64,000 nt of DNA from a virus: IMG/VR virus record IMGVR_UViG_3300025015_000001; one strand, written 5' to 3'. The translations under genes were made by a program, and so were the position numbers. Shown one piece after another: positions 7,786 to 39,239 of this stretch; the first letter of the stretch is position 1; the number at the start of each line of letters is the position of its first letter. The notes beneath the pieces were generated by a model. That model worked only from the letters and a program-made list of their open reading frames with translations. It was not told where the DNA came from and did not search any database.

Positions 7786-7787
7786 CT

Positions 7788-12154: not shown

Positions 12155-12163
12155 CAAAGAAAT

Positions 12164-12207: not shown

Positions 12208-12212
12208 AATTC

Positions 12213-12241: not shown

Positions 12242-12294
12242 TATAATATAAATTTTTAATGCTATAAGCATAGCACAGAATAAAGGAGAAGTCA

Positions 12295-19697: not shown

Positions 19698-21095
19698 ATG
19701 ATAAATAAAAAATCTTTATTTGATAGAGTAGCAGAAAGTCTTATTACAAAAAAATCTGGCACTGGCATATCTATAGAAAAAACAGCAGAAGACAAAACTG
19801 AACGTAAGAATAAATTCAAAGGTTTAGATGATTATGAAAAAATGATACTAGCAATATGCAATACACCAAGAACTGATTCACATATCAAGCAGTTTTTCAA
19901 ATCACGTAATGAGCAAGGTCAGACTATTAATTTTGATAGCAAGATACAGAAGCTTACAAAAGAGGGCTATTTAGATCATGGTTATAATAAGTATGTAGTA
20001 AATCCTAAATTTAGAGAATTTATAACAGTTATACCTATGACAGCCTCTAAAAAGGAAGCAATGAATTACGAAGTAAACACACCAGAGGATTATATAAGCA
20101 AAGCAGTTGCATACGGTTTAGATGACCCCACTATAATAAATAAATTATCAGATAGTTATGGGATAGAGCATAACCAAGCATATAACATGCTTCAGGATGC
20201 TAAGTCAGGTAAAACAAGTTATACAGATACATCAAGGGGTGATTTAGGTGGCGGATTAATAGATAGAACCGAAAGGGAGGAATACAGAGAGTCTATTATC
20301 GCGACCAAGTCTTTTAAGTTGAGTGTCGAAGAAAAGGTGGCTATAGTAGAGGTAGAGGCGGCACGTTATGAATGGAACGGTTCGGATTTAGTAAACTATG
20401 AAACTCAGGAAAAGGTAGATGTTAGTTCTCTAAAATTAAATGACAAAATATTAGATAATCCAGATACAGAAGAAAATTCATTTTTAGATAGAGCAGTATT
20501 TATGCTACCATCACATCTTTATATAGATGAAGTTGGTTATCATAAAGATTTAGCTGCACCTATTCTAATGGTTTATAAAGAATCTAGCAGAGAAGCTAAA
20601 AATCTAAAACAAAAGAAAGCTAACAAAACTGCAGCATCTTTTGTTAACACAATCGGGAGTAGCAATTATAAGCTTAACCCAAATAATGTTTCTCAACGGG
20701 CAGTTACATTTGCACGTAAATTTTTATCAAATTATAGATTCCCATTAGCACCAACTATTAAATTTAATGCTATGAAAAATGCATCCACAAGTAATAATAT
20801 GCTAAATGGGGAAGTACATTTGACATTGGGATTCAAGACACTATCAAATGTGCACAAGTATATTGATATATCAATGCCTATTAAAGAGGGTAGTTTCATA
20901 GAGCCCTCCACTATGACTGTAGATGGCAAATCTTATATCATATCCCAATCCGCAATAGACGATCTAACCAAAAGTGGGACATTTTACACCACAGTTAATC
21001 CCAGGGCATCTTCCCAGCCGATGGACAGGAAAATTTTGGATACATTCAAAGATAGAGTCGTTCCTAAAATAAAAAGAAATTTGTTTTCAATCTGA
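19698..21095 (+). CDS. Putative virion protein
   Basis: 465 aa; N-terminal NKKSLF, internal KSFKLS, KTA/KVA motifs. Confidence 0.6.
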   Translation: MINKKSLFDRVAESLITKKSGTGISIEKTAEDKTERKNKFKGLDDYEKMILAICNTPRTDSHIKQFFKSRNEQGQTINFDSKIQKLTKEGYLDHGYNKYVVNPKFREFITVIPMTASKKEAMNYEVNTPEDYISKAVAYGLDDPTIINKLSDSYGIEHNQAYNMLQDAKSGKTSYTDTSRGDLGGGLIDRTEREEYRESIIATKSFKLSVEEKVAIVEVEAARYEWNGSDLVNYETQEKVDVSSLKLNDKILDNPDTEENSFLDRAVFMLPSHLYIDEVGYHKDLAAPILMVYKESSREAKNLKQKKANKTAASFVNTIGSSNYKLNPNNVSQRAVTFARKFLSNYRFPLAPTIKFNAMKNASTSNNMLNGEVHLTLGFKTLSNVHKYIDISMPIKEGSFIEPSTMTVDGKSYIISQSAIDDLTKSGTFYTTVNPRASSQPMDRKILDTFKDRVVPKIKRNLFSI

Positions 21096-21148
21096 GAGTT
21101 GTAATTGTGGGGTAAAAAATAAAACAGTATTTTGATAAAAATGATGAT

Positions 21149-24100
21149 TTGGTCTTATTGTTAGATAAGTACAAGGAACAACTAGATTTTAAATCAAAAA
21201 ATTATGAGGAGATAGAGGCTTTTGTTGGTGATAAGCCTCTTGTCGTTTCAACTAAAATAGATGGGATTTTGCATATAGCAAAATATCTTGATGGTAAGAC
21301 TTACCTTGCTACTCGCGAGGGGCGTATTACAGAAGAACTACCTGTATTGACTGAGATTTCTAAGATGTTAAATGATAAACAAGAAACAATTTTATTTGGT
21401 GAATTGTATGGTATAGATGCTGACGGTAGAGAACTACCGTTAAATGAGACAATATCAATCACAAGAAAACCAAAATCACCAGAAGATGAGCATAGAATTA
21501 AATTTGGCATATTTGATATTTATAAATATGATGGAAAATTAGTAGAGGAGAACGACTACTGGAAGAGATTGCTGTTAGTACAAGAATTATTTGAAGACGG
21601 TAAGTATGTTCATCCTGTATATGCAAAAAATGAAGACGGATCTTCTGCTATTAAAAAAATGTGGGAAGAGGAAGTTTTAAGAGAAGGGCACGAAGGTGTA
21701 GTTTTACATATAGAAGGTAATACTATTAAGATTAAGCCTACCAAAACTATAGATTGTTTAGTTATTGCGGTTAAGCCTAATTTAGAAAAAGGCTTTGCTA
21801 GTTCTTTATTTTTAGCATTGATGGATAAGGACGGCATATTCAGAAGTACTTCATTTGTTGGTACAGGATTGACAGACGAAGACAGAGTGGAGTGGTTAAA
21901 TTATGCAAACGAAAATAAAGCCCTAGCTCCTAATCATGATGAGCTTTTATGGATTGATATAAATAAAAATCCAAGAATTGTAGAAGTAGACTATGAACGC
22001 CCTATTGTAAAAGAAACAGAAAGTTTTAAATTCATTAATGGCGAATGGGGACAATTAGAAGAAGAAAGATTAGCTGCTACACTAATCAAACCCAGATTTA
22101 TTAGATTACGCGAGGATAAAAAAGTAACAGAGACCGATCTCAGACTTATTCAGATTCCTGATTTAGAAAAAGAATTGACTAAAAAAAGTTTTAAAATAAA
22201 TGCTGATCTTAAATCTTATGATGATTGGTTTTTGTCAGAGTATGGTGAACTACCTAAGTATGAGTATGTGTATATGCAAAGATTTTACGAAGGTCAGCCA
22301 CTAGATATAGCATTCAATGATACAAAAATACATTCTACTAGATTAGATAGATTTGATTTTAATTTAAATAAGTACTCCGATAGAATTACTAACTTGTCTC
22401 AATTAATTGCTGACATGGATAAAGTTAAGGCTATAGGGTATGATAAGATAAGTATTATCAAGCCATCTGGAGAAATAAAATTATTTGATAAAAAATCATT
22501 TAAACTAGAAGCTTATTACCCAAATCACCCTAATACAGTAATTTTTTCTAAAGGAGAATTTTTAAGATATGATCTTAGAGAAAAAGATGTGTGGGAATTT
22601 TATGATAAAGTAAAAGACAAAATATTACAACAAACTCGCGGTAAGAATGTTTTATTATATCTCAGAGTTAATGGTGATATATTAAAACGTAAACATGATG
22701 GTATAGTCAAGGTAGATAATTATAATGATTTTAACCGTATTAATAATGGTAGAATGATTGAGATACACTCTGAAATATGTCAAGAAAAAAGGGATACTTG
22801 TCTTACTGATATTATTTTTTGTGATGTAGACCCCAAAGAAAATTTCCCTTGGAAAGATACAAAAGAAATAACTAAAAAGATATATAATATTTTTAACAAG
22901 GACTCCAATGTAAAGCATGTAAAAATCCACTATAGCGGGAACAGAGGATTCCACTGTATAGCAAAACTTAGGGAATTATGGGAAGTTGATAGAGCAAGAG
23001 AGTATACAAAACGCTTGCTTAAATCATTAGAATCTGATAAAATAAAGTTGGGTATAGTGCGAGAAAATGATATGTTACGTTTAGATACCACTTTATTAAA
23101 AAGACGAGGCTCTTTGCGCACAGCGTATTCTTTAAATAAGACCACAGGATTAGTAGCAGTTCCTGTGGATATTAAATCTTTAGACACTTTTGAAAAGAAA
23201 GATGCTACTATAAAAAAAGTTTTAGAGAAGTTGAGTGCAAGTAAAAAATCATTTAAAATTAATGCCGAAGATATTATATATGGTCCTTGGGCTATATATG
23301 ATGATATAGTAGATGCCGCTACTGGAGATATTACTCACATAGAATGGTTTACCAATATAGGATTTCCAGTATCCCCAAATATTTTTGATAAGATTACCAG
23401 AGGTTCGTACATTATAAGAGATGGTATACTTAATATAATGATTTATCCTGAAGCTGGGTATGTAGAAGAAGCCCTAGATAAATCAAATAGGTTAATGGAT
23501 AAGATAGGTTATCATGATAAGTATAAAGAAGTTAGGTTTTTTAAAAGCCATAAAATTGGAATCAACAGGATAGCTAAAAAATCATTTAAAATAAATTCTT
23601 CTATATTAGATTATCCTAAGCCTGGATTAGAACCTAAAGTATGGAATTTTGATGGTACCATAAATGAGAATGTAAAATCACAAATACTCAATAAACTTAA
23701 CAAATTTATAGAATCGCAAGGATATAGTGCTAAAGAAATTATAACTAAAATTTATGTAGTGGGAAGTTTAACTTCATACCAGTATAATAGAAATACAGAT
23801 TTGGACGTTCACTGTTATTTGAATCTCCAAAATATGTTAGGAATATTTCAGGGCAATGAAGCCGACCTCATAGAATTAATAGATAAAAGTTGGCGTAAGA
23901 CATTAAATAAAGCCGAATCAGAGACTATAGAAGGAACGCAGCACCCATTAGAGTTCTATTTTGAAATACCAGAAGATTTATCCGTAGCACCTTCAGATGG
24001 TGTTTACGATTTATTAAATAATACTTGGATAAAAGAACCTAAAGTTATTACTGTGGATTTTGATATAGAGAAAATATATCCTGAAATTATTAATAGAGCT

Positions 24101-24784
24101 AAAGAGATTGCAAAAGAATTAGACATTCAAATAGGTGAATTAAAACGAGATGTCACAGATGCAGAGATGATTCAGGATTTGATTGACTACTTATCCGAAG
24201 AACAAAAAGGGTTATTTGTAGAGAAGTTAAATACCAAGATAGAAGAAATAGATAATAATATTGTAGATTTACTTAAAGTAGAGCAAAGTATTAGTGATAA
24301 GCGCCACGAAGATTATGCTTGGGATAGTGAAGGAAATATTTTATTTAAATTTTTACAAAGATTCGGCTATGTCGGGTTGTTAAAATCTATTGAAAAAGCT
24401 ATAGGCAATGATAAAAAATTTGATACGGATGACATAGAAAATACTCAAAAAGTACTAAACCCAATTAAGAGTTTTAGATTATATGCAGGATTCTACGATC
24501 CCAACAGCCCGATTTTACTCAATCCAGAAGGCGGAGGAGAAGGCAGGCATAGACTTGTAGATCCTAAAGCCTTTGATAAAGACTCATTTAGGCGCTGGTC
24601 AGAGTGGGCTGGAGTAAAAGCCCCAGCTGGGATTACATTCTTAGTCGGAGATTTAATTAAAGAAAAAAATAAAGCTCTTCAGGCCATACGTTTTGATACT
24701 AATATAATATCTGAAAAGGAAGCAGAAAAATTTTGGAATAAAGTAAAAAATAAAAAAGGTTTTGAAAAAACTTGGAAATGGTAG
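21149..24784 (+). CDS. Polyprotein: ATP-dependent DNA ligase + LigD-type primase-polymerase + Pol-beta-like nucleotidyltransferase + small modules
   Basis: Ligase KIDG, FGELY, FDIY, EGVVL, KIKP, PRFIRLREDK; AEP DVDP, SGNRGFH, YSL; NTase GSLTSYQYNRNTDLDVH; domains separated by KKSF-type motifs. Confidence 0.9.
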   Translation: MVLLLDKYKEQLDFKSKNYEEIEAFVGDKPLVVSTKIDGILHIAKYLDGKTYLATREGRITEELPVLTEISKMLNDKQETILFGELYGIDADGRELPLNETISITRKPKSPEDEHRIKFGIFDIYKYDGKLVEENDYWKRLLLVQELFEDGKYVHPVYAKNEDGSSAIKKMWEEEVLREGHEGVVLHIEGNTIKIKPTKTIDCLVIAVKPNLEKGFASSLFLALMDKDGIFRSTSFVGTGLTDEDRVEWLNYANENKALAPNHDELLWIDINKNPRIVEVDYERPIVKETESFKFINGEWGQLEEERLAATLIKPRFIRLREDKKVTETDLRLIQIPDLEKELTKKSFKINADLKSYDDWFLSEYGELPKYEYVYMQRFYEGQPLDIAFNDTKIHSTRLDRFDFNLNKYSDRITNLSQLIADMDKVKAIGYDKISIIKPSGEIKLFDKKSFKLEAYYPNHPNTVIFSKGEFLRYDLREKDVWEFYDKVKDKILQQTRGKNVLLYLRVNGDILKRKHDGIVKVDNYNDFNRINNGRMIEIHSEICQEKRDTCLTDIIFCDVDPKENFPWKDTKEITKKIYNIFNKDSNVKHVKIHYSGNRGFHCIAKLRELWEVDRAREYTKRLLKSLESDKIKLGIVRENDMLRLDTTLLKRRGSLRTAYSLNKTTGLVAVPVDIKSLDTFEKKDATIKKVLEKLSASKKSFKINAEDIIYGPWAIYDDIVDAATGDITHIEWFTNIGFPVSPNIFDKITRGSYIIRDGILNIMIYPEAGYVEEALDKSNRLMDKIGYHDKYKEVRFFKSHKIGINRIAKKSFKINSSILDYPKPGLEPKVWNFDGTINENVKSQILNKLNKFIESQGYSAKEIITKIYVVGSLTSYQYNRNTDLDVHCYLNLQNMLGIFQGNEADLIELIDKSWRKTLNKAESETIEGTQHPLEFYFEIPEDLSVAPSDGVYDLLNNTWIKEPKVITVDFDIEKIYPEIINRAKEIAKELDIQIGELKRDVTDAEMIQDLIDYLSEEQKGLFVEKLNTKIEEIDNNIVDLLKVEQSISDKRHEDYAWDSEGNILFKFLQRFGYVGLLKSIEKAIGNDKKFDTDDIENTQKVLNPIKSFRLYAGFYDPNSPILLNPEGGGEGRHRLVDPKAFDKDSFRRWSEWAGVKAPAGITFLVGDLIKEKNKALQAIRFDTNIISEKEAEKFWNKVKNKKGFEKTWKW

Positions 24785-24792
24785 GAGAGATT

Positions 24793-25437
24793 ATGCTAAA
24801 TAAAGAAGAACTAAAGATGACCTCGTTACTAAAGCTAGCCATAGAGGATACCTTAAAATTATATCTACAGTTTAAAGGTGTCGAAGTGCCTATAGCGTTC
24901 ATTTCTATAAAAGACGCCGCTAAGTTCATAGCAGGTGGCCTATCGGAAGAAGGTATAACTACAGTTGATTATTTGACTAAAGTGGAATGGAGAGAAAAAG
25001 GACTTTTTATAAACAATCTATTTTATAAACTTTTTTGGGGCAGCGCTTACGATGACGAAAGTGAGTATTTGACTATTAATGAAAGATTACAGATGGACAA
25101 CTCTATCACAGATAATCTCGACCGACACAAAGAGGAGATAAAAATGGCCTCTTTACTAAAATTAGCTAAACAAGAAGATATTGCATTCGATGCAAATGCT
25201 TTTATACGAGTATGGGTGGATATTACTGATTTAGAATATGAAACTGAGATAGAAAATATTAAGAAGATGAGCATCTCAGAAGATGAAAAGATTAAATTAG
25301 CTAAGAATTTTGCTAAACAGGTAGCTACTAATAAAATAAGTGAAAACGATGTTCAGATTAAAGGCTATGATGATCTGGATCAGACTTTTGATAGAATAAA
25401 TTGGGCTGCTCTGGTAAGCTCTGAAACAGAAGAATAA
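24793..25437 (+). CDS. Two-module putative head protein
   Basis: ATG 24793 with AGGAG; KM(T/A)SLLKLA occurs twice. Confidence 0.65.
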   Translation: MLNKEELKMTSLLKLAIEDTLKLYLQFKGVEVPIAFISIKDAAKFIAGGLSEEGITTVDYLTKVEWREKGLFINNLFYKLFWGSAYDDESEYLTINERLQMDNSITDNLDRHKEEIKMASLLKLAKQEDIAFDANAFIRVWVDITDLEYETEIENIKKMSISEDEKIKLAKNFAKQVATNKISENDVQIKGYDDLDQTFDRINWAALVSSETEE

Positions 25438-25457
25438 AATATTTATAAAGGGTATGT

Positions 25458-26219
25458 ATGTTAGAGCATCGTTGTAAGTTATGTAAATTAGGATTAGAAG
25501 ATAAGAGTATATTATTAAAAATACATAATCTTAGATTTAGAGAAGATGTAACATTGCGTTCTATGGAAGAAAAAGTTAAAGAGATTATAGCCACTAGTGA
25601 GAATGAAAAAATAAAGAATATGGACCCACCTTCTTACGTAGCAATATCTTATCATTTTAGAAGACATACTTCTCCTAGATTAAAAGCTAAATATAAGACG
25701 CAAGCTCTTATGCCGGCTTTGATGGAGAATGCAAAAAAAGAATTACTAGACATCCCAGAGGTATCTGCTGATCTAAAAAAGATAGAAAAAGAAAGATTTA
25801 GTTTATATGATGATTTAACTTTACTGTATAATACAATGAAAGCTAGATTCGAAGCTTTTGATGAATCCCAAGGCAAGATGATTAATTTAGGATTGCCTGG
25901 GGAAAAAGGAAATTTAGAAGGTTATACAGCATTATCAAAAGTTCTTAAAGATGTCTTATCAGAATTAAATAAGATGAGACAAACAGAGCAGTTAGCTAAG
26001 AATATATTTAATTTTGCATTAAAAGAATATACTATGCTAACTATAGAAACTATTATGAGAGAATCAGAAATGATGAAAAAGAATTTAGCTACGCATATTA
26101 AAGATGGTTTAATTGTAGAAGATTTAATAGAGGAATTGCAATGTAATATAGGAACACATTTGAAAAAAGGATTTAACGAAGTTATAAAGAAAACAGAAAC
26201 ACAGTTTAACTTAAAATAA
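25458..26219 (+). CDS. Probable terminase small subunit
   Basis: Directly upstream of terL; N-terminal CKLC, helical body; positional inference. Confidence 0.55.
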   Translation: MLEHRCKLCKLGLEDKSILLKIHNLRFREDVTLRSMEEKVKEIIATSENEKIKNMDPPSYVAISYHFRRHTSPRLKAKYKTQALMPALMENAKKELLDIPEVSADLKKIEKERFSLYDDLTLLYNTMKARFEAFDESQGKMINLGLPGEKGNLEGYTALSKVLKDVLSELNKMRQTEQLAKNIFNFALKEYTMLTIETIMRESEMMKKNLATHIKDGLIVEDLIEELQCNIGTHLKKGFNEVIKKTETQFNLK

Positions 26220-26222
26220 AAT

Positions 26223-29200
26223 ATGGCACGTCCTAAAAAAGATTCTCCCACAGTAGACATGCGGTCAAATATATCATTAGATGATATTGGTTCTGAGATA
26301 TCAGGATTATTTGATAAGCATATTATTGGCGGAGAAAAAATTGATTGGAATAAAGATAGCGTAGGCGAATCTACACAAGCAGTAGACAAATATGCTATAG
26401 ACTTTTCCATACAAGCTCCTAATATTATAGAATGGAGCACTAGTGAGAAGTTCTTAAATCAACCATCTTTGTTTGATTATAAAAGACAGTATCAAACAAT
26501 ACGAGATTTGTTTCAATTAAGATGCCCATTATGCAATAAATTAGATAGACAGTCTATAGATTGTTGGGATAAAGGAAGAGAATATTTAGAATCAGAGAAT
26601 TTATTAGCATGGTCCCCAAAGCACCATGACGATGTTTGCCCATCTTGCAATACTACAAGAAGAGAATTTGAAACAGATGGTATCTTTAAACGTTATAATA
26701 CTTTTGTGGCATGCGTTGGTATGCGTTCTGGTAAAAGTGTCATGGCAGGGGCTTATTTAGGCACCTACATAGAACATTTAATAATAACATTAGGTAACCC
26801 CTCATCTTACTTTGATGTTTTTCCTGGGCAGCCATTTGAGGTGGCATTTACAGCAACCACAGAGGTTCAATCGGAAGGAACCATTTATGCATATTTTAGA
26901 GCGGCACGAGAACAGTCCCCTTGGATACAAGCTTATATAGAACATTTGAAACAGGAAGAAACAAGAAGAGGGTTATTTAAGCAAACACTATATAACGAAA
27001 CAAATAAAACCATATATTACAAAGAACTAAATACAGAATTCAATTCCTTGCATTGCTTTACCAAAGGTACACAAATTTTATTAAGCAACTACACATATAA
27101 GAATATAGAAGACATACAGATTGGTGATCAAGTACTAGATAGAAAAGGCTACACACAAAAAGTAGAGAGTGTTTGGTGTGAGGGCGCACCCAAAGAAATT
27201 TTAGAAATAACAGTTTATGGTGGTACTAAATTTAAATGTACCAATAACCATAGATTTCCAGCATATGTGTGGCCCAAGAAATGTTACTGTGGATGTGGGG
27301 CTGAGCTCGATACAGGGCGCTCTTTTATAAAGGGGCATCAAGGTAATGGTAGAAAATTTAAGATGCGTATAGCAGAGGGTAGCGGAGGGCACGTAAGAAG
27401 ACTTCCTCTGGAATATAACCCACTACAAGACGTTATAGCGGAAGATCTCGGTGTAAACGATTACTTATTTATGCCTAGAAAATTTGAAGAGATCAAGACA
27501 GACGTCTCCCCAGAGCAAGCTAGATTATTAGGTTATTACATCGCCGAGGGCTGTAGTAATAGAACTACGTACAAATCTGGCTATAAAAGGTTGGGATCGG
27601 AGTTCACATTCCATAAAGATGAACTACATACATGGGTTAAAGATATATACTATATTTGTGATAAATATAAAATTCACTACAATACATATTTAAGAAAAGA
27701 CGCTAAGGCGTGTGTAACTTTTACATCTGGAAAAAATGCAATTGAGACAGCAGAATGGTTGGAGACAAACGGCGGCGTCTTTTCAAAAACAAAGAAACTC
27801 TCTGAGGATGTGATGAGATGGCCATTAAATCTTAAAATGGAACTTATCAGAGGGCTATTTAGGGGTGATGGTACTCATCATTTAAAAAAACAAAGATGCC
27901 CTAATATCACATATAACACGGCTTCAAAAATCTTAGCTCAACAGGTACAAATGATTTTATGCCAACTAGGTTATTATTCTGGAATTGTAGAGCATAAATA
28001 TAGAATTACTAAATTTAATAAGAATGGTAAATCTATTGGCTACTATGTTAATATGGGGGGTAATCAAACATTTAAGTTAGCCGAAGAAATCTGGGGCGCG
28101 AATAATAAATTTATTGATGTAAAAATAAGCCCTATTAAAAATTTATGTAAAGTAGACGACGATTATATTTACTTCCCAATTAAAAGTATTAAAAAGATAA
28201 TTAATTCTGATCCTGTATATAATCTAACAGTTTCAAATGACCACTCTTATATAGTAGGTAATATAGGTACCTATAATTCCAATTCCGGAGGGCTAGCTGG
28301 TAGAACACGTGTTTGGGCCGTAGTAGACGAGCTAAGCAGATTTGAAACTTCAGTAGGAGAAAGTCGTAGGGGGGCAAAAGAAGTTTATAATGTTATTGAT
28401 AATGGTTTAGCTACTGTAAGAGGAGAAACCGATAGAAGACAATTGCCATATATTTTTGGAATGATGAACGCAGTAAGTTCACCCATTCATAACAATGATA
28501 TGACAATGAAACTTCTTAAGACTGCTAAAAAAGATAAAAATGTTTTTGCTGTACATTACCCTACTTGGAAATTTAATCCTAAGATTACAAGAGAAAGTTT
28601 AGAATCAAGATTTCAGAGAGACCCTATTGGAGCAGAGAGAGACTTTGGCGCAAATCCACCCAATGCAGAAATGCCTCTTATTACAGATGAAGAACGTTTT
28701 AGAAAATGTATTAATCCAAATCTAAAACCAAAAGCAACATTTGAAGACACTACTCCTGTGGATGGTATGGGGAGAATGTATGCAGGTAAAATACTAAAGC
28801 ATGCTGATTTTGATAGATTAACATCATATTATATAGCTGGTGACGCAGGTAAATCCAAGGATAGTTTTGCTTTAGCTTGCGGTCATGGTGAGTATAAAGA
28901 TGTTCACACGCCAAACGGAATAGAAAAGAAATGGTGCACCATAATGGATTGGTGCGTTACGATAAGACCATCTGTCAAACCACGTAAAACTATTTATTAT
29001 GATTGTATTGTAGACATATTAAATAGAATTAAGCAAAGACAAAAAATACAATCAGTTGCATTTGACCATTGGCAATCAGAAAGTATTTTACAAGATCTAA
29101 GCAACATGCAAATCGAGACAGCAACATATAATGTCAAAGCTGAAGATTATATGAGATTTGTTATAGATGCGTATGAAAGTAAAGTTCAGTTAATACCCCC

Positions 29201-29489
29201 TGTAGCTGAAGATGAATATCTAGACCCGTACGCACCAGTTAAAGGTATGTCAGATTATGGAAGACTTGTGCATGAATTATTAAATTTAGAAAGAAGTGCA
29301 GATTTAAAGACAGTCGATCACAGATCAAATGAGCATAATGACTGCGCTGCAGTGGCTGTAATGGTGCACAAGAATGTACAAGAACAGGTATCCACTACAG
29401 GCAAGTCTAAGAATTTTAAAAATGCAATGAGTGTAGCAGTACAAAGTGGGCTAATGCCAACCTCAGCTAGAGTAGGATTCTGGCGATAG
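26223..29489 (+). CDS. terL: Terminase large subunit with intein
   Basis: Walker A GMRSGKS, Walker B AVVDE, nuclease IAGDAGKSKDSF and FDHWQS; 680 aa after intein removal. Confidence 0.92.
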   Translation: MARPKKDSPTVDMRSNISLDDIGSEISGLFDKHIIGGEKIDWNKDSVGESTQAVDKYAIDFSIQAPNIIEWSTSEKFLNQPSLFDYKRQYQTIRDLFQLRCPLCNKLDRQSIDCWDKGREYLESENLLAWSPKHHDDVCPSCNTTRREFETDGIFKRYNTFVACVGMRSGKSVMAGAYLGTYIEHLIITLGNPSSYFDVFPGQPFEVAFTATTEVQSEGTIYAYFRAAREQSPWIQAYIEHLKQEETRRGLFKQTLYNETNKTIYYKELNTEFNSLHCFTKGTQILLSNYTYKNIEDIQIGDQVLDRKGYTQKVESVWCEGAPKEILEITVYGGTKFKCTNNHRFPAYVWPKKCYCGCGAELDTGRSFIKGHQGNGRKFKMRIAEGSGGHVRRLPLEYNPLQDVIAEDLGVNDYLFMPRKFEEIKTDVSPEQARLLGYYIAEGCSNRTTYKSGYKRLGSEFTFHKDELHTWVKDIYYICDKYKIHYNTYLRKDAKACVTFTSGKNAIETAEWLETNGGVFSKTKKLSEDVMRWPLNLKMELIRGLFRGDGTHHLKKQRCPNITYNTASKILAQQVQMILCQLGYYSGIVEHKYRITKFNKNGKSIGYYVNMGGNQTFKLAEEIWGANNKFIDVKISPIKNLCKVDDDYIYFPIKSIKKIINSDPVYNLTVSNDHSYIVGNIGTYNSNSGGLAGRTRVWAVVDELSRFETSVGESRRGAKEVYNVIDNGLATVRGETDRRQLPYIFGMMNAVSSPIHNNDMTMKLLKTAKKDKNVFAVHYPTWKFNPKITRESLESRFQRDPIGAERDFGANPPNAEMPLITDEERFRKCINPNLKPKATFEDTTPVDGMGRMYAGKILKHADFDRLTSYYIAGDAGKSKDSFALACGHGEYKDVHTPNGIEKKWCTIMDWCVTIRPSVKPRKTIYYDCIVDILNRIKQRQKIQSVAFDHWQSESILQDLSNMQIETATYNVKAEDYMRFVIDAYESKVQLIPPVAEDEYLDPYAPVKGMSDYGRLVHELLNLERSADLKTVDHRSNEHNDCAAVAVMVHKNVQEQVSTTGKSKNFKNAMSVAVQSGLMPTSARVGFWR
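27054..28277 (+). mobile_element. 408-aa intein with LAGLIDADG endonuclease in terL
   Basis: CFTKGT start, TNNH block B, LLGYYIAEG and IRGLFRGDG, C-terminal VYNLTV...GTYN followed by Ser; splicing restores FNSLH/SNSGGLAGRT. Confidence 0.92.
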
Positions 29490-29749
29490 CTTGGTAAGAT
29501 ATATGGCACTTTCTAAAGATATGTTACATTCATTTAGTAGATATTTAATCGACTCTGCAAAATTGTTTAGTTTTTTAGCATCACTTAGTAGAGTATTGCA
29601 CCTCCCGACTATAAAATATGCACCACTACAAATTTCTTCGAAAAATGTAGTACACGGAGGCACTATGCAATACTTACCATCATTAAATATATTTGTCGCA
29701 GATACTTTGCATAGTTTTTCTGGACATTTTTACAGTCTTCATATTCCAT
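29463..29749 (-). pseudogene. LTKIK-family small protein (copy 5), frameshifted
   Basis: ATG 29749 MEYEDCK; one A missing in the run at 29727-29731; restoring it gives CKKCPEKLC...VPPC...LESAIYLTKL. Confidence 0.75.
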
Positions 29750-29755
29750 AAATAG

Positions 29756-29784
29756 ATGTTAACATAAATTTAAAAGTAAGTCAA
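29756..29784 (-). promoter_or_regulatory. sigma70-type promoter, probably leaderless transcript
   Basis: TTGACT-17-TAACAT, 6 nt before ATG, no SD. Confidence 0.65.
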
Positions 29785-29804
29785 TTATAATTTAATTATT
29801 ATTA

Positions 29805-29838
29805 TTTAAAAATTTTTTAAAAATATTTGTGATATAAT
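29805..29838 (+). promoter_or_regulatory. Phage-specific promoter motif (partial)
   Basis: TTTAAAAATTTTTTAAAAATATTTGTGATATAAT, 5 nt before ATG 29844. Confidence 0.7.
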
Positions 29839-29843
29839 ATAAA

Positions 29844-30212
29844 ATGCCGATTGACAAGTTCAGTAGATATCAAACAAAATTAGTAATGAGTGAAATGTAC
29901 CCAGCTAAAACAGATGGTACTTGTAGATGTGGTTGTGGTAAAAAAATAGAACCTCCACGTAGAATATGGCATAGTACAGAATGTTACACTAATGCTCTTA
30001 ATAATTATTTTGTTATTCGTGGCGATGTACCGACTATAAGAAAATTATTACAACAAAGAGACGATGGTGTATGTAATAATTGCAAGAAGAAACTATCCAG
30101 CTGGCAAGCTGATCACATCGTAGAAATTAGAGATGGTGGTGGTGGATGTGGATTAGATAATTTTCAGACGTTATGTTTAAAGTGCCACAAAAAGAAAACA
30201 CATAGTAGATAA
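29844..30212 (+). CDS. HNH endonuclease
   Basis: CRCGCG N-module; CNNC...ADHIVEI...NFQTLCLKCH. Confidence 0.9.
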   Translation: MPIDKFSRYQTKLVMSEMYPAKTDGTCRCGCGKKIEPPRRIWHSTECYTNALNNYFVIRGDVPTIRKLLQQRDDGVCNNCKKKLSSWQADHIVEIRDGGGGCGLDNFQTLCLKCHKKKTHSR

Positions 30213-30221
30213 GAGGTATGG

Positions 30222-30980
30222 ATGTTAAAGGTAAGCCACATAAGTAAAATATCAGAAGTAGCGACCATTAGTATTGATGAACTGGTTCCCTCTGAGCCAT
30301 CAGTCGTATATACATCGTATTTACCTCTATATAATAAACTTAAAAAAGGTGAAACTCTTCCCTACGTAAAAGTTGTTTTAATAGACGACGAATATATTAT
30401 TGTTGATGGCAATAATAGAGCTAAAGCTGCCAAAGATTTTGGTTACACGTCTATCCCAGTTGATGTGGTCACTCTACCTAAAAATAGAGAACTATTTTTC
30501 CGAAAAAGTTTAGACAAATTTAGGCACTTGAAAGGATTGGCTGATCTGCCTATATATAAAAATAGAACAGATAGAAGGGAGAGATACTCCAATATAAAAT
30601 TTGCACATTATTCTAAAAATGATATTGAACAACTCATCCCAGAAGATAATTCAATACTTATTTCTATCACAGGAACAGCTTCTGATTTTGCTAATGTAGA
30701 TGACAGTTTATATAAAGACATTCTACGAATCAGATTTAGTGATATACAAAAAGATTTTGGTAAATTTAGAGCATTTACTAAAAATCAAGCTAAAGATATA
30801 TTATCTTTTGTAGATAGTAATTTACCAATCAGCTATGTGTATATTAACTGTGAAAGAGGGCAGAGCAGATCAGCAGCCTGTCACTCTGCTTTAGAAAAGA
30901 TATATAATGATAAATTTGTGGATTTTCCAAAAAGCAATATTCATGTAAAGAATATTTTATTAAGTTTAGTCAAGGAGTAA
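30222..30980 (+). CDS. ParB/Srx-like domain fused to a tyrosine-phosphatase-like domain
   Basis: IIVDGNNRAKAA (ParB/Srx; usually DGHHR) and INCERGQSRS (CX5R). Confidence 0.75.
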   Translation: MLKVSHISKISEVATISIDELVPSEPSVVYTSYLPLYNKLKKGETLPYVKVVLIDDEYIIVDGNNRAKAAKDFGYTSIPVDVVTLPKNRELFFRKSLDKFRHLKGLADLPIYKNRTDRRERYSNIKFAHYSKNDIEQLIPEDNSILISITGTASDFANVDDSLYKDILRIRFSDIQKDFGKFRAFTKNQAKDILSFVDSNLPISYVYINCERGQSRSAACHSALEKIYNDKFVDFPKSNIHVKNILLSLVKE

Positions 30981-30982
30981 CT

Positions 30983-32797
30983 ATGCCAAAAGTAAACCAA
31001 GCATATCTTAAAATTGCAGATAAATTAGCAGAAGCTAAGAACTATCTTTATGAAGTAGTTCAGAAGAAGATAGAGGAAGGAAAAGATCAGACTACTATTA
31101 TTAAAGAAATTAAAAAAGAATTTTCTCCCAATGAATCTGTTATATGTGATATTGAGAATACATTTTTTAAGACAGCTTATATTGGTTCTGGAATAAATGA
31201 GTTATATGAGGAAGGTGAGATTTCAGATGATATATATACCACTATAGGCAAAAAGTATCGTGAGATGGAATCTCAAATAGCGCCTTTATTCGGGAAAGGC
31301 AAATATCAGAATCAAGAAGAATTTGAACGTGCTTTTGCTAAGTGGGTCAGAGCAGCATACCCTAATATTTATGATAGGGTAGCAAGTAAAGAAAATATAG
31401 ACTTCTCTGATATTCCCGAAATAGATTTTTCAAAAGTATCTTATATTAAGAAATTAAAAGATAAAGAAAAATGGAGAGTATACTCTGAATCAGGTAAGAA
31501 TATGGGTACATATGATTCTATGAAAGATGCTAAAAATCGTCTAAAAGAAATAGAAACATTCAAACATATAAAAAAATCTAATAATAATCCGTATTTACAG
31601 AAACAGGCTGCTACTCTTGTGGGAAAAGAAATACAACTTAAAAATGATACTGTTATAAAATTTAATGAATTTAATGTAGCCATCCCAACTACTGCATTTG
31701 GTATTATTACAAAAGAAAATCCAATAATTGCACAATTTGACATAGATGATATTCATATGTTTAAGGCCCCAAATGGTAAATTGTATTATACTAAGGAAGA
31801 GGTAGAAGAAGAATTTCAAAAACAATATGGGCATTATTGGGAAATGGAAGTTAATTTATCAGAAATCAATATAACAGGTGCAGAAAGTAATATAGAAGCC
31901 ATTAGTAGAAAAGTAGCATCTACTTTTATATGGGATGGTAAGATCTTGCTCAACGAAGAAGGGGATTCAGTAGAGCCTAATACAATACAAGATGGGGACT
32001 CAGTAAGATTAATAGGCCCGGAAGCCCACTTAAATATTTATGATGTTCTTCCTAAAGAAAAAATGTTATTACACAAGGCAGAGTCATGGCTAGACCAAGC
32101 TAAACCTGGAGATAAAGTTCAGTTAGACGGGGGAGAAACTGGGGAAGTTCTTAATGTTTCTGAAGAAAAAGTAGAAGTTAAAACGCCCACTAAGACTGAG
32201 ACTGTTTGGAAAACCAAGACTAGTTTTGATAAACATACTGCTATTAAGGATCAAATATTAAACTTACTAAATACAGTATTTGGAGGTAGTTGGGATAATG
32301 TTATAAAAGCTATTGAGGAATACAAACCAAAGAATAAAACATCTGGTATATTTGATAGAGCTAAGGTATGGTTAATGATTACCTTAATAGCCGGTTTATT
32401 AGGAGTGTCAGCGCAGGATATTTTAGCCGCCTCATCTCAAGATATCAAAGAGAGAGTTATTAAAATAATGCGAGGGGTCTACCATCCACCTGAAGTAATT
32501 AAGGATATTTTTGGAATACGTAAAGATAGTAACTTCGGGCAGTTACCCGATTCAGATATTTCCGATGAAATTGGGAGAGTAGATACCAGTTATTTTTCAG
32601 AAGAGAACAAAGTCAGATTAGTATTTATATTTTGGAAAATTTCTGAAAAAGATGCCACTTCTATTTTTAAAGATGTTTTAAACGATAAAATTAGCCGCTT
32701 ATCCATACAATTTAAAAATGCTACTCCCATTATAGAGGGGTTTAAAAAAATAGAAGATGGTAAGTATGAGGCCTATGTAGTTTTTAAAAATAAATAA
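30983..32797 (+). CDS. Modular putative virion/ejection protein
   Basis: Contains a YIKK...WRVYSESGKNMGTY...AKNRLKEIETFK module, a KOW-like module, a hydrophobic helix and K-x-A junctions. Confidence 0.6.
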   Translation: MPKVNQAYLKIADKLAEAKNYLYEVVQKKIEEGKDQTTIIKEIKKEFSPNESVICDIENTFFKTAYIGSGINELYEEGEISDDIYTTIGKKYREMESQIAPLFGKGKYQNQEEFERAFAKWVRAAYPNIYDRVASKENIDFSDIPEIDFSKVSYIKKLKDKEKWRVYSESGKNMGTYDSMKDAKNRLKEIETFKHIKKSNNNPYLQKQAATLVGKEIQLKNDTVIKFNEFNVAIPTTAFGIITKENPIIAQFDIDDIHMFKAPNGKLYYTKEEVEEEFQKQYGHYWEMEVNLSEINITGAESNIEAISRKVASTFIWDGKILLNEEGDSVEPNTIQDGDSVRLIGPEAHLNIYDVLPKEKMLLHKAESWLDQAKPGDKVQLDGGETGEVLNVSEEKVEVKTPTKTETVWKTKTSFDKHTAIKDQILNLLNTVFGGSWDNVIKAIEEYKPKNKTSGIFDRAKVWLMITLIAGLLGVSAQDILAASSQDIKERVIKIMRGVYHPPEVIKDIFGIRKDSNFGQLPDSDISDEIGRVDTSYFSEENKVRLVFIFWKISEKDATSIFKDVLNDKISRLSIQFKNATPIIEGFKKIEDGKYEAYVVFKNK

Positions 32798-32799
32798 TT

Positions 32800-35382
32800 A
32801 TGAAAAAATCATTTAATTTAAATAGTGTTTTTACTGATATGTATTTTGAGGATCGTAAATCTCCATCTATAGGATTGCAGAATCCTATCCGTATGCCCGC
32901 CCCATCCGATGGTTGGAATTTAGAGCCTAAAAATCAATCGGAAAGAACATTATCCCCTATCATGAGAAGAGAGCAAACAGATGATATTATGGTAAATGAC
33001 GACTCTAGAATTAAAAATAAATTACCGAATAAATCTAAAAAGAAAGAAAAATCATATAAAGAATTAGGAGTGTTACCTACCAAAAAACGTTTAAAATTTA
33101 TTACAGAGAATCCATCTGATAGTGGTCACAGTATGTTAGGACCAGGAAGTAGTGGGATAGAAACAAATAACGAAAATAAAGCTAAGCCTATTCCTGTGCG
33201 TAAACCACAACATACTGTACGCGAGAATAATGTAGAGTGGTTGGATAAATTAAGCAGCATATTACCCGATTGGTGCAGAGTAGCTTATAGAATACAAGAC
33301 ATCTTATCAGAAAAAATAAAAAAATATAATCTGCACTTAGATGACTTATTAGCACTAACAAAATCTGATATAAAAACATACTTTATGGGGAACAGAAGAG
33401 ATTTTGGTGGGTTTATAAGACAATGGGGAGGCGACGATGTTTTAGCAGCAGCATCTGTTAAATTATATAGAATCGCCCACCCAGAACAATTCTCAAGATT
33501 CTTTACTCCTAATCAAGAAAAAGAAGTATTGGATTGGGCTGAAAGTATTTTACAGCAGTATGATATGCAATCTAAAAAATCATTTAATCTAAACTCCTTT
33601 GAAACTCAAAATAGAGATGTTATGGAAGAAGGTTATCAATTAATGCCCAGGAGAGACTTTCCTGATGGATTTCATAAACGCCCAGTAACTCAGCCAGGAG
33701 AAGGCCATCTACCATTCATGCGTGGCAAGGAACCGGGAGAAAACTTATCTAAAATCCCAGTAGAGGATTTATCTCCCAGGCCATTTTTTGAAACAAAGGT
33801 ATTTAAGCCAAGAAGAAAATATATATATGATGTTAAGAAAGTAAAAACCTCCTCCGAAAAGTACGAAAATATCGTACTATCTGGAGATAAAAAATCATTT
33901 AATATTATGTCTATTAAATTAAACTGGGGGAGCAGTTTACAAAATAAGTATCTTAGCGAACTTACTTCTGAATATAAGGAAAAGTTAATCAATATGGCAG
34001 TAGAAGTATGGCAGAAAAAAGGAATAAGTAGAGAAGCTATAATAACTAAATGGGATGAATTATCAGATAAATTAGATAAAGTAAATAAGTCTGAATTTAT
34101 TGCTATATATAATTCATATGCTACAGAATTATATGGGGCATATGAAGAGTTTAGAAAAAGAACCGATGGTATAGAAAAAGACGAATCACGCGCGGATGGT
34201 CTAAATCCTAAACCTTATTACGGGGACTCTAATATTTATCCATATAGAGGCACAGGCGTAGGTTTACCCTCTTCTACATTTATAGAGCCATTTGAAACAG
34301 TAACGAGAGAAGTTAGAGTATCAAAGATTCTGCCAACACAATCTATCGGTAGTAAAAATAAATCATTCAAAGTAGTAGCACAGGACGAAGAAGATAAGCC
34401 AGCAGTTTCTCAAGAGGCATACGATGCATTTACTGAGAAGTCTTACGTATTTAAAAATTATCAATTAGCAGCCGAACAAATTGAAGACGCTATTGATAAA
34501 GGGAAAGATTTATCCATTTTATTAAAATATCAGAAAATGTCTGACACTCAGAAGCAGAGAGCAGTTAATAGAGCTATTGAGAAGAGTGTTGCACTTATAT
34601 ATTTATATGAGAATGAAAAAGAAAGTTTATCAGATGCTCAATATAAGCATCTTATCAATTCATTGTATAAAAAAGCAATGGATGATGGTACTAATTTAAT
34701 ATATATTCTTAGAAATTTTGATCTACCTGCAGAAAGAAAAACTGTATTAGTTCAAAAGGCATTAGAAGAAGGTGTTGGGTTACATTTCTTATTTAAGAAT
34801 AGATTACTTACCCCGGAGCAGCAGGATTACGCTGTTAAAAAAGCAATAGAGACTGGATTAGGTTTATTAGATCTACTTAAATATATTAGCTTAACTCCCG
34901 AACAAAAGAAAGTTGTTATTAATAAATGTATAGAAAAAGGAATAGCATTAATATATTTACTGCGCAAAGAAGATTTAAGTGAAGAACAAAAGACTAGTGT
35001 GTTTAGTAAAGCACTGAGAGAGGGAAAAGGTTATCATTTTATTTTAAGAACATATAAATTATCTCCCGAACAAATTAATTTAGCAATAAGAAGATCTAAG
35101 CATAAATATGATAATTTAAAAATGATAGCGAAATACCAAGATATTAGCCCAGAGCAGCAATCTTACATAGATAAAAGGATTGAAAAAATGAAATCAAAAA
35201 AAAGTTTTGTAAATGCTAAGTATGTATTCGTGCTGCCTGGTGAAGAAGGCTTCGAAGAATTACAGCAATTTTTCAGAGAAGCGGATGATGAGTCCGTAGT
35301 AAAGATGTATGACTATATAGAAAGTGATAATCTTGCAGATGCTAAAAAATTATTAGAAGAGTTTATAGGCACGGAAATATGA
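32800..35382 (+). CDS. Modular protein with five KKSF-type motifs and a helical-repeat domain
   Basis: KKSFNLNS x2, KKSFNIMS, NKSFKVVA, KKSFVNA. Confidence 0.75.
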   Translation: MKKSFNLNSVFTDMYFEDRKSPSIGLQNPIRMPAPSDGWNLEPKNQSERTLSPIMRREQTDDIMVNDDSRIKNKLPNKSKKKEKSYKELGVLPTKKRLKFITENPSDSGHSMLGPGSSGIETNNENKAKPIPVRKPQHTVRENNVEWLDKLSSILPDWCRVAYRIQDILSEKIKKYNLHLDDLLALTKSDIKTYFMGNRRDFGGFIRQWGGDDVLAAASVKLYRIAHPEQFSRFFTPNQEKEVLDWAESILQQYDMQSKKSFNLNSFETQNRDVMEEGYQLMPRRDFPDGFHKRPVTQPGEGHLPFMRGKEPGENLSKIPVEDLSPRPFFETKVFKPRRKYIYDVKKVKTSSEKYENIVLSGDKKSFNIMSIKLNWGSSLQNKYLSELTSEYKEKLINMAVEVWQKKGISREAIITKWDELSDKLDKVNKSEFIAIYNSYATELYGAYEEFRKRTDGIEKDESRADGLNPKPYYGDSNIYPYRGTGVGLPSSTFIEPFETVTREVRVSKILPTQSIGSKNKSFKVVAQDEEDKPAVSQEAYDAFTEKSYVFKNYQLAAEQIEDAIDKGKDLSILLKYQKMSDTQKQRAVNRAIEKSVALIYLYENEKESLSDAQYKHLINSLYKKAMDDGTNLIYILRNFDLPAERKTVLVQKALEEGVGLHFLFKNRLLTPEQQDYAVKKAIETGLGLLDLLKYISLTPEQKKVVINKCIEKGIALIYLLRKEDLSEEQKTSVFSKALREGKGYHFILRTYKLSPEQINLAIRRSKHKYDNLKMIAKYQDISPEQQSYIDKRIEKMKSKKSFVNAKYVFVLPGEEGFEELQQFFREADDESVVKMYDYIESDNLADAKKLLEEFIGTEI
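34510..35196 (+). repeat. Eight imperfect ~28-aa helical repeats
   Basis: Consensus L-x-Y-L-L-K/R-x-x-x-L-S/T-P-E-Q...A-I-E-x-G. Confidence 0.85.
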
Positions 35383-36056
35383 AAATTTTTAAACTATCTG
35401 AGTTAGGTGATATAAAAAAATCATTTAAACTAACAGACCTTATGAGTATGGATATTATTAAAAAATCATTTTTTATAATAGATGCCGCATATTATGCTTT
35501 AATTGATAATGCCAAAATATTTCATACAGAACAATTAAATAAGAGAGAATTTGAGAGAGCACAAAAACATTGGCAAAAAGATAATCCAAATGTTCAATTC
35601 CTGGAAATTAATAAAGATAAATATAACGAATTAGTAGAACGTTTTAAAGAAAATAAAGATGAAGAGATCTCTATTTCAGATGTAGGTATTTCTGTCCCAA
35701 TCAAAGAAGAGCCTATTGACGAAGTAGAAGAGGAACCTGTAGAGGATGAAGAGGAGATAGATGAGAAAGAAGAAGCAGACATATCTGATATATTATCAGC
35801 AATTAAAGAAGCTGCCAAAAAACAATTATTACTAAAAGTAACATACAGAGATCGTGATGGTAATGTTACAGAAGGACGTTACATTGAGCCGTGGGAAATA
35901 AGAGACCAATACGTGTTTGCTGGCGATAACTATGGCGACCCAAGCACATCTGGGGAAATCGGGACCAAGCAGTTTATAATGGCAGCTTTTAGTGATTGGG
36001 GATTATCAGAAGAACCTTACCAAAATCCAGCTGCCTACCCTATAAAAATAAAATAA
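35379..36056 (+). CDS. Protein with KKSF leader, acidic linker and C-terminal WYL-like domain
   Basis: AAKKQLLLKVTYRDRDGNVTEGRYIEPWEI resembles the WYL core. Confidence 0.65.
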   Translation: MKIFKLSELGDIKKSFKLTDLMSMDIIKKSFFIIDAAYYALIDNAKIFHTEQLNKREFERAQKHWQKDNPNVQFLEINKDKYNELVERFKENKDEEISISDVGISVPIKEEPIDEVEEEPVEDEEEIDEKEEADISDILSAIKEAAKKQLLLKVTYRDRDGNVTEGRYIEPWEIRDQYVFAGDNYGDPSTSGEIGTKQFIMAAFSDWGLSEEPYQNPAAYPIKIK

Positions 36057-39013: not shown

Positions 39014-39239
39014 TTAATTGCAAAGCGTCTTCTAATTCTAAATCAGATTTAATTATTAGATCTTGTATTGTATCTGATGTAGTTATTTTACATTTGTTGT
39101 GCATTATAAATTTTGAACATTTATAGACTATAATTTTATTAGTAATTAATAATGGGTGCACATTGCTGGTAGCACCCCACCTTTGGAGGCTGTCTATACT
39201 GTGATGTTGTTCTAACGTGATATATTCCACATTATTCAT
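38979..39239 (-). CDS. LTKIK-family small protein (copy 7)
   Basis: LELEDALQLTKL. Confidence 0.7.
   Translation of the reverse strand: MNNVEYITLEQHHSIDSLQRWGATSNVHPLLITNKIIVYKCSKFIMHNKCKITTSDTIQDLIIKSDLELEDALQLTKLQTQLELKL

Follow-up and report, generated by a model that had tools for sequence, protein, structure and literature searches.

A recurrent eight-residue motif at the module boundaries of large proteins encoded beside phage head genes: a candidate capsid-targeting and cleavage tag

Why does one short peptide recur, at the N-terminus and between the domains, in otherwise unrelated proteins encoded next to the packaging genes of a phage? The question arises from IMG/VR virus record IMGVR_UViG_3300025015_000001, of which a stretch of 64,000 nucleotides was analysed (the window, to which all positions refer unless another locus is named). 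It is the final 63.9 kb, on the reverse strand, of the complete 194,269-bp genome of an uncultured groundwater phage with terminal repeats and 34% G+C. The peptide, KKSF[KN][IL]x[AS] in its strictest form and hereafter the KKSF tag, had been predicted from the DNA to target proteins to the capsid and to be cleaved there. The motif and its modular behaviour are solid. As to what they serve, we give about an even chance to the following answer: the tag is a targeting and cleavage mark, like the capsid-targeting sequence (CTS) of phage T4, on polyvalent cargo proteins, and is also an in-frame recombination joint. We infer this mechanism from sequence and consider it well motivated.

The tags and the open reading frames (ORFs) that carry them are given below. 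Bit scores refer to a position matrix (PSSM) built from relatives, with 15 bits as the threshold for a strong match; L026, from Hainich groundwater, is the one close relative found in a metagenome scan.

21149..24784, plus strand: polyprotein of 1211 residues, six modules with five tags between them (Pfam; alignment with six homologues)
its residues 22-324: module 1, ATP-dependent DNA ligase (Pfam)
its residues 353-447: module 2, unknown
its residues 514-699: module 3, LigD-type PrimPol (Pfam)
its residues 707-809: module 4, unknown
its residues 818-1105: module 5, Pol-beta-like nucleotidyltransferase
its residues 1114-1211: module 6, conserved C-terminal module
22181..22204, plus strand: tag KKSFKINA, serine codon AGT, after the ligase module; 24.3 bits
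22490..22513, plus strand: tag KKSFKLEA, before the PrimPol module; K-S-F-K invariant in seven homologues
23243..23266, plus strand: tag KKSFKINA, directly after the PrimPol domain (Pfam end at residue 699)
23576..23599, plus strand: tag KKSFKINS, before the nucleotidyltransferase module; degenerate in four homologues
24464..24487, plus strand: tag variant IKSFRLYA (originally listed at 24467), before the C-terminal module; 16.7 bits, K-S-F invariant in 7/7 homologues
32800..35382, plus strand: polyprotein of 860 residues without Pfam domains, two ORFs upstream of the portal gene; one N-terminal and three internal tags
32803..32826, plus strand: N-terminal tag M-KKSFNLNS, residues 2-9
33574..33597, plus strand: tag KKSFNLNS, kept in relatives
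33889..33912, plus strand: tag KKSFNIMS; the module that follows has stand-alone homologues of 65-84 residues
34357..34380, plus strand: tag variant NKSFKVVA, 17.7 bits; orthologous sites KKSFKITS, RKSFKLVA and AKSFKLKA
35379..36056, plus strand: ORF of 225 residues whose N-terminus carries the tag, followed by an acidic linker and, C-terminally, a WYL-like domain; overlaps the preceding stop by 4 nt
35415..35438, plus strand: tag KKSFKLTD; KKSFRLFA in L026
20304..20327, plus strand: weak tag-like site TKSFKLSV (originally listed at 20307) in ORF 19698-21095; 12.2 bits

The original prediction counted 13 copies. In a six-frame scan seven of these fit the exact pattern (22181, 22490, 23243, 23576, 32803, 33574 and 33889), and the other six are looser variants, weak or doubtful. 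IKSFRLYA and NKSFKVVA retain only the KSF core and are kept in relatives as tag sites, and KKSFKLTD is off-pattern at its last position. Two sites are doubtful: KKSFVNA at 35197 lacks one residue, its counterpart in the 67-82% identical L026 being KKSSVDP, and KKSFFIID at 35460 is missing from the L026 orthologue. The weak site TKSFKLSV falls in the N-terminal 300 residues of ORF 19698-21095, which are not conserved; the C-terminal domain of this ORF is a core gene of the wider phage family, its ~150 residues being kept in at least 14 distant relatives and found upstream of the portal in the loci checked.

Could such a motif be a product of chance, or simply mark where a repeated domain ends? 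A proteome that is AT-rich and rich in lysine might favour such an explanation, and so might the internal helical repeats in module 4 of the 860-residue ORF. However, in the 58,443-residue phage proteome KKSF[KN][IL] is seen 8 times against 0.03 expected (at most 1 in 300 shuffles), a roughly 260-fold excess, and KSF[KNR][ILV] 12 times against 0.6. The PSSM scan gave 10 matches of at least 15 bits against 0.18 expected, all of them in ORFs 21149-24784, 32800-35382 and 35379-36056, and in a motif-blind 8-mer search of the region the KKSF motif was the only family with three or more copies. The flank columns of the copies are unconserved and the flanks unrelated, so that similarity does not run beyond the 8-mer, which marks the tag as a short linear motif rather than the border of a repeated domain. 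Enrichment, PSSM and de novo search together effectively refute this explanation, to which we leave practically no probability.

How the motif is placed within proteins can be seen from relatives. With the two polyproteins as queries we retrieved about 25 metagenomic proteins at 45-85% identity, and these hold 79 distinct motif instances with the consensus K-K-S-F-x-[ILV]-x-[AS]. K, F and [ILVM] were preset by the instance search pattern; beyond the preset positions, S is present in 76/79, an upstream K/R in 60/79 and A/S two places after [ILV] in 66/79. A search of IMG/VR with the polyprotein alignment gave only two distant nucleotidyltransferase matches, and the ESM Atlas gave no usable lead for two of the modules.

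The tags in relatives always stand between domains or 1-7 residues from the start codon, and across the window and the relatives all Pfam domains lie between tags and none across one, which bears out the idea that the motif demarcates modules. In individual relatives, a NUDIX domain (296-391) lies between tags, DUF5661 ends one residue before a tag, a GNAT domain (872-940) is flanked by tags at 866 and 963, a 2H/Acb1-like domain (593-709) by tags at 539 and 718, and cREC_REC begins 7 residues after a tag. One and the same tag thus adjoins ligase, PrimPol, nucleotidyltransferase, NUDIX, GNAT, 2H/Acb1-like, DUF5661, cREC and unknown modules, and two or more unrelated enzymatic domains share a polypeptide both in the window (ligase, PrimPol and nucleotidyltransferase) and in the relatives (NUDIX, DUF5661 and GNAT, 2H/Acb1-like, cREC). 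In the AlphaFold2 (AF2) model of the 1211-residue polyprotein, built from seven sequences and poor overall (predicted local distance difference test, pLDDT, 44), all five tags lie in low-pLDDT coil. Its sole confident small domain (model residues 341-434, about residues 353-446 of the protein; pLDDT ~80) is predicted to start one residue after tag 1 and to stop one residue before tag 2.

Indeed, whole modules (ligase, PrimPol, NUDIX, GNAT, 2H/Acb1-like, cREC) are gained or lost exactly at the tag. In the alignment of seven ligase polyproteins, P0006 has one module precisely deleted, with a single hybrid tag left, the counterpart of the copy at 23576; P0005 and P0008 have extra modules, each with one extra tag; an HExxH module occurs in P0005 only. 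P0010, from which modules have been lost, retains a tandem row of four to five bare tags at 8-residue spacing. A small helical module ending '...QQYD-Q-KKSF' is common to ligase-type and 860-residue-type polyproteins, and in P0075 the 225-residue ORF is fused to its upstream polyprotein as the last module. N-terminal use of the tag is equally recurrent. Orthologues of the 860-residue protein (~45% identity) begin MSKKSF, MIKKSF, MPKKSF, MPKKTF or MEAVVIRKSF, tags 1-7 residues past the start codon are found in the window and in P0011, P0012, P0019, P0075, P0077, P0078, P0080 and P0084, and in P0011 and P0019 the N-terminal tag stands on other modules. As a separate observation, the 3973-residue metagenomic protein P0081, which has no KKSF tag, opens with the ligase polyprotein's nucleotidyltransferase module and shows 15 matches to the helical repeats in the 860-residue ORF.

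Is it then the peptide or the DNA beneath it that is maintained? Across the 194-kb genome there are exactly 7 copies of the sequence AAAAAATCATTTAA, the number reported before, and none lies outside the tagged ORFs; all are on the plus strand and in one codon phase. Serine is encoded by TCA in 9 of the 13 copies, AGT in 3 and TCT in 1, and TCA makes up 21% of the genome's serine codons (P=2.5e-4); the K-K pairs are AAA AAA in 10/10 cases, whereas any codon is used at the [ILV] and [AS] positions. One could therefore suppose that the motif acts mainly at the DNA level, microhomology of the AAAAAATCATTTAA type shuffling cassettes while the peptide is a tolerated passenger. The sevenfold identical 14-mer, the over-used TCA and AAA, the module indels exactly at the motif and the tandem copies of P0010 all point in this direction. 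Yet the residues are constant although their codons include AGT, TCT and TCG for serine and AAG for lysine, the copies all lie in a single frame on a single strand and are conserved at N-termini too, and the consensus persists at 45% identity despite diverged DNA. We consider a mainly DNA-level motif very unlikely. Residues kept through synonymous changes imply selection on the peptide, and the earlier inference of protein-level selection stands, since synonymous codons vary in the window and in L026 while the consensus holds down to ~45% identity. The TCA bias, the AAA AAA pairs and the indels at the tag suggest in turn that the copies derive from each other and recombine; the 14-mer bias, too, points to spread by duplication, as proposed before, or by recombination. 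Protein-level and DNA-level signals are thus both present. In view of the codon variation, the single frame and the deep conservation, we prefer to see recombination at the tag as following from selection on the peptide.

Where the tagged genes lie bears on what this peptide may be selected for. From ~12.3 kb onward the plus strand carries nearly all genes of the window: a UvsW-like helicase and a DnaG-type primase (12907-15910), unknown ORFs, the 1211-residue ORF (21149-24784), two small ORFs and the intein-split large terminase (26223-29489). On the 3' side of the terminase follow an HNH gene, ORFs 30222 and 30983, and the 860-residue and 225-residue ORFs (32800-35382 and 35379-36056), and then the head genes in the order portal (36644-38872), a TnpB-like insertion, protease-scaffold (40373-43672) and major capsid protein (45418-46524). 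By portal, the nearest named phages are Virus Rctr197k (44% identity) and Bacillus phage G (27%).

26223..29489, plus strand: large terminase with intein, between two groups of tag-bearing genes
36644..38872, plus strand: portal protein (PHROG portal, E=9e-76; tblastn matches to phage portals)
38369..38392, plus strand: portal site KRGFKVTA, residues 576-583, at the border of a Pro/Ala/Glu-rich linker and the C-terminal domain

The genome-wide scan gave strong copies only in ORFs of this one co-directional block with terminase and portal, in keeping with the expectation that the motif would be restricted to head-module genes. Tagged ORFs are found on both sides of the large terminase and directly ahead of the portal gene. 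The layout of L026 is the same: it keeps the order polyprotein, WYL-like ORF, portal, with tags in other codons (TCG, AGA). The tag-like site noted in the portal is real and is conserved as RRGFKITA in L026; in distant relatives it reads [YF]-G-N-W-x-A, the tag-like full-length form being found only in the phage's own clade. A relaxed pattern, [KR][KR][SGAT]F[KRN][ILV]x[AS], which was defined after the portal site had been seen, has the portal as its only hit outside the polyproteins, with 0.05 expected in the proteome.

The N-terminal copies, where there is nothing to separate, point to a role beyond module separation, the many internal copies argue for cutting, and the capsid is suggested as the place by the portal site and by the restriction of the tag to ORFs that adjoin terminase and portal. 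These points bear on another proposal, in which the tag is a cleavage linker only and a highly specific protease frees the enzymes in the cytoplasm, with neither capsid loading nor injection. The protease might be the prohead protease acting outside the capsid, a phage ClpP-like enzyme or a host enzyme. The eight-residue alternating pattern is like the polyprotein-processing sites of eukaryotic viruses, the ligase/PrimPol/nucleotidyltransferase polyprotein is encoded near helicase and primase genes, no MuF anchor was found in the genome, and a ClpP homologue is present. However, cleavage alone explains neither the conserved tags 1-7 residues from the start nor the contiguity of all tagged ORFs with terminase and portal, nor the tag-like site in the portal itself. 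Moreover, operons already yield separate proteins, so that a polyprotein without co-packaging has no obvious benefit, and ClpP degrades its substrates instead of cutting defined sites. A linker-only role therefore seems to us unlikely.

If the tag is cut, which enzyme of the phage could do it? The head genes supply a candidate, together with candidate sites of its action.

40373..43672, plus strand: prohead protease (residues 1 to ~240) fused to a scaffold-like tail of ~860 residues (PHROG head maturation protease, E=1e-39)
41090..41098, plus strand: I-N-A, residues 240-242, at the edge of the protease domain; candidate self-release site by analogy with the herpesvirus R-site (PMC4498786)
45418..46524, plus strand: major capsid protein (PHROG major head protein, E=2e-59)
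45556-45564, plus strand: candidate capsid maturation site V47-N48-A49/Y50 (cut after A49)

An AF2 model of the protease from a 44-sequence alignment (pLDDT 85) aligns in VIA-align with T4 gp21 (5jbl) at Z=10.1 and a root-mean-square deviation of 2.9 Å over 126 residues, and with herpesvirus proteases at Z=9.2-7 (9.2 for that of varicella-zoster virus, VZV); the top Foldseek rows are all herpesvirus proteases and T4 gp21. H113, S167 and H194 are invariant in 44/44 protease sequences. Their spacing, with the third residue about 25 positions after the Ser, matches that of the herpesvirus Ser-His-His triad. As modelled, residues 1-240 of ORF 40373 have the T4 gp21/herpesvirus assemblin fold, and the herpesvirus protease is of the Ser-His-His triad type (PMC4498786). 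Searches with the protease gave no matches by sequence in the PDB and, with the protease domain alone, none in IMG/VR.

Proteases of the assemblin fold cut behind tripeptides with a hydrophobic P3 and a fixed P1, L/I-x-E in T4 and S/A-x-E in phiKZ (PMC9026906), and the cut sites of pseudorabies virus (PrV) are YLQA|T and VQA|S (PMC4498786). Judged by sequence, the [ILV]-x-[AS] end of the tag fits the P3/P1 rule of this family. The residues directly behind the last strand of the protease domain, where the herpesvirus release site is also located, are [IL]-x-A-[KQS] within the close clade and, in the family at large, I-L-A-S or L-x-A-[AS]. In the capsid protein, all 14 relatives whose N-terminus was retrieved as far as the site keep [VIL]-N-A-[YSWN], which directly follows an N-terminal stretch of very variable length. 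The tripeptides of protease end, capsid and portal may thus link the form of the tag to head proteins. In several relatives (L002, L012, L015, L017, L022) the capsid N-terminus upstream of [VIL]-N-A measures ~10 to >200 residues, and it is Gln-rich in high-GC relatives. A site resembling the herpesvirus M-site, VTA|S near the scaffold C-terminus, was rejected, as it is not conserved.

Two further sites of the original prediction did not hold up. KKQAFKVET, in the protease ORF, has no conserved counterpart even among relatives of 79-83% identity; it closes an insert that only this phage has. The 'KKTFN' at 40240 belongs to a separate ORF of 40 codons, where it reads KKTFNTVE, lacking the hydrophobic and small positions of the motif; this ORF (40240-40362), directly upstream of the protease gene, has a good Shine-Dalgarno sequence and a TTG start.

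The fit to a protease rule also bears on the proposal that the tag is never cut: as a short linear motif it might form a beta-strand peptide that docks the modules to a partner (scaffold, portal, a DNA-bound hub or a host factor), with the polyproteins acting intact and multivalently. F-x-[ILV]-x-[AS] after two lysines would be typical of strand-addition peptides, the information content of the tag is above what known prohead proteases need, and some polyvalent proteins are packaged uncut, for example N4 vRNAP (PMC5512222). On the other hand, the tags stand strictly between domains and in low-confidence coil, the [ILV]-x-[AS] end agrees with the rule by which the family of the phage protease cuts (PMC4498786), and the modules stand alone elsewhere, so that tethering is not needed. 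We regard an uncleaved docking peptide as quite unlikely.

We therefore return to the targeting and cleavage mark. The polyproteins would be made late, from the co-directional block shared with terminase and portal. The basic/aromatic half of the tag, K-K-S-F, may dock them to the procapsid scaffold or the shell interior, whereupon the protease of ORF 40373 (residues 1-240) would cut behind the [AS] of the [ILV]-x-[AS] half. The cut would free separate enzymes, namely ligase, PrimPol, nucleotidyltransferase and unknown modules, and in relatives NUDIX, GNAT, 2H/Acb1-like and cREC; these could then exit with the DNA and act before the expression of any phage gene. The near-identical 14-17 nt that encode the tag would have let modules be inserted, deleted and swapped in frame. 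Consistent with such a route, the cargo modules of the relatives resemble those typical of injected polyvalent proteins (PMC5512222).

Several points weigh against this mechanism. We infer every step: late expression and docking, the cut, its exact position and its enzyme, and finally packaging and ejection. Neither the capsid protein nor the scaffold, the canonical substrates of the protease, has the full eight-residue tag, and relatives do not keep the tag-like site of the protease ORF. By a rough estimate from approximate residue frequencies, the tripeptide shared with capsid and protease is expected by chance ~90 times in the proteome; known prohead-protease motifs hold ~3 informative residues where the tag has 8. 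Seen from the terminase, the ligase polyprotein stands on the side of the replication genes, and it could be a repair protein of the ordinary kind. There is no match to the MuF head-anchor domain (PF04233) in the genome, which does encode a ClpP-family protein (PF00574, E=4e-37; G000:C1:142251-142772, locus L027) in an accessory region far from the head genes. The evidence for linkers that comes from the polyprotein model is weak, given its overall pLDDT. Finally, distant relatives that have a protease of the same family, namely Rctr197k and 21 IMG/VR loci with portals 35-45% identical, show no 8-mer joints, in a search that a 3-residue motif would escape; the long tag would accordingly be an innovation of one clade.

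In its fullest form the tag would be three things in one joint: a procapsid address, a cut site of the assemblin-fold protease and a microhomology for in-frame module recombination. All three together we rate as rather unlikely. If true, the joint would make up a protein-level 'integron' of injected enzymes, with which a clade of large groundwater phages could swap virion-delivered repair and anti-defence enzymes as plug-ins, and it would offer a portable handle for loading chosen proteins into capsids.

How does the tag compare with known systems? In function the T4 CTS is the closest precedent, and in architecture the polyvalent proteins (PMC5512222). The T4 CTS consists of 10 N-terminal residues with targeting determinants at 4 and 7 and processing determinants at 8 and 10 (PMC9026906); it is found on the internal proteins IPI-III and Alt, and gp21 removes it inside the prohead (Mullaney & Black 1996; PMC9026906, PMC3012670). 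The likeness drawn at the outset is sustained in length, N-terminal use and two-part build. Both peptides are short (8-10 residues) and common to otherwise unrelated, fast-evolving cargo proteins, both can follow the initiator Met directly, and both combine an upstream part with an end of cleavage type, of hydrophobic P3 and defined P1, which in the KKSF tag is putative; the protease fold is the same, and the cargo is thought to counter host defences. However, the KKSF tag is mostly internal and joins modules into polyproteins, its P1 would be Ala/Ser and not Glu, and its conserved part is longer and basic (K-K-S-F). The phage, moreover, is not T4-like, its portal and capsid protein being of the phage G/Rctr197k type.

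Polyvalent proteins (Iyer, Burroughs, Anand, de Souza & Aravind 2017, PMC5512222) likewise unite unrelated enzymatic domains (NUDIX, GNAT, 2H, primase-type) in one polypeptide, are encoded beside portal and terminase genes, show extensive domain shuffling and are proposed to be injected with the DNA (PMC5512222). They differ in that PMC5512222 describes no conserved junction peptide (the word 'linker' is absent from its text) and ascribes processing to embedded zincin-like peptidase domains, whereas the KKSF phage has a defined eight-residue joint and no match to a MuF anchor. Herpesvirus UL26, with its R and M sites (PMC4498786), shares the assemblin-fold protease with a scaffold-like tail, a small P1 and an [ILV]-x-A at the end of the protease domain, as in the R-site YLQA|T (PMC4498786), but the herpes enzyme processes only itself and the scaffold, with no enzyme cargo and no element like K-K-S-F upstream. 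In phiKZ, 201phi2-1 and SPN3US (PMC10052503, PMC5694885) a gp21-like protease acts on a short motif at multiple sites in many internal head proteins; there the motif is S/A/G-x-E, and long N-terminal propeptides are discarded instead of joining modules. The cargo-loading peptides of encapsulins, too, are short conserved peptides that direct diverse enzymes into an HK97-fold shell, although they are usually C-terminal and uncleaved, have no sequence similarity to the tag and form no polyproteins.

The tag would thus combine known kinds of system, namely the T4 CTS, polyvalent proteins and assemblin-type processing, and what is new is the tag itself, distinct in being long, basic and ending in Ala/Ser, in a phage lineage other than that of T4. 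For giant polyvalent phage proteins, the route of entry into the capsid and any cutting into working enzymes become directly testable with a sharply defined eight-residue joint, which can be mutated or transplanted to a reporter and calls for one recombinant protease. If our reading is true, the CTS principle exists beyond T4-like phages with a different chemistry (P1 Ala/Ser), end-joining enzymes (ligase, PrimPol, nucleotidyltransferase) can be delivered with the genome, and the turnover of cargo repertoires is explained by in-frame cassette exchange.

Other ideas about the motif were set aside. Prp-type F|A cleavage, as in L27 and phage 80alpha, was dropped, as no Peptidase_Prp was found in the genome and the F is followed by K or N. 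A frameshift or slippage signal was rejected, the zero-frame codons AAA AAA TCA TTT not being an X XXY YYZ heptamer and six A's being too few for slippage. Clamp binding, signal peptidase and an isopeptide tag were discarded for want of a Q-x-x-L-x-F-type pattern, of a hydrophobic H-region and of a conserved Asn.

Distant members of the phage family also carry large ORFs between terminase and portal, for example an ORF of 2175 residues in Rctr197k in which HExxH, PRTase-like and GNAT-like stretches can be made out by eye. The only recurrent word in the distant loci belongs to a tandem 30-residue repeat protein in L007 (12124-14100) and L008 (12058-14079), which is encoded between portal and protease and has about ten repeats centred on A-R-S-D-H-K-H-D.

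The intein of the large terminase (26223-29489) contains a LAGLIDADG domain, and in L026 the portal gene and the prohead protease gene (6346-9762; 11096-12490) are each split by an intein-like insert, in the protease directly after the S-M-G-C active-site motif. Intein Pfam domains are also present in the protease homologues P0025, P0040, P0062, P0065, P0067, P0073 and P0074. The insertion between the portal and protease genes is a TnpB/Cas12f-like ORF (39217-40047; PF07282, E=7e-18); a second TnpB-like ORF elsewhere in the genome has a chance tag-like match, IKSFIVTS, within its RuvC motif.

A second shuffled element among the head-region genes, unrelated to the KKSF tag, is a 27-residue module, DKSIA[VI]KNGHKV...MWC.ANK, found at 18286-18366 and 43954-44034 with 72/81 nt identical. 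One copy belongs to the N-terminus of ORF 18256-18672, the other to the middle part of ORF 43675-44334, which directly follows the protease-scaffold gene. Lastly, ORF 30222-30980 (252 residues), located after the HNH gene and ahead of the cargo ORFs, contains a 'DGNNR' stretch resembling ParB-N (Pfam E=0.24 only) and, at its C-terminus, the C-x5-R signature CERGQSR, as in Cys-phosphatases; it carries no tag and is possibly an additional cargo enzyme.

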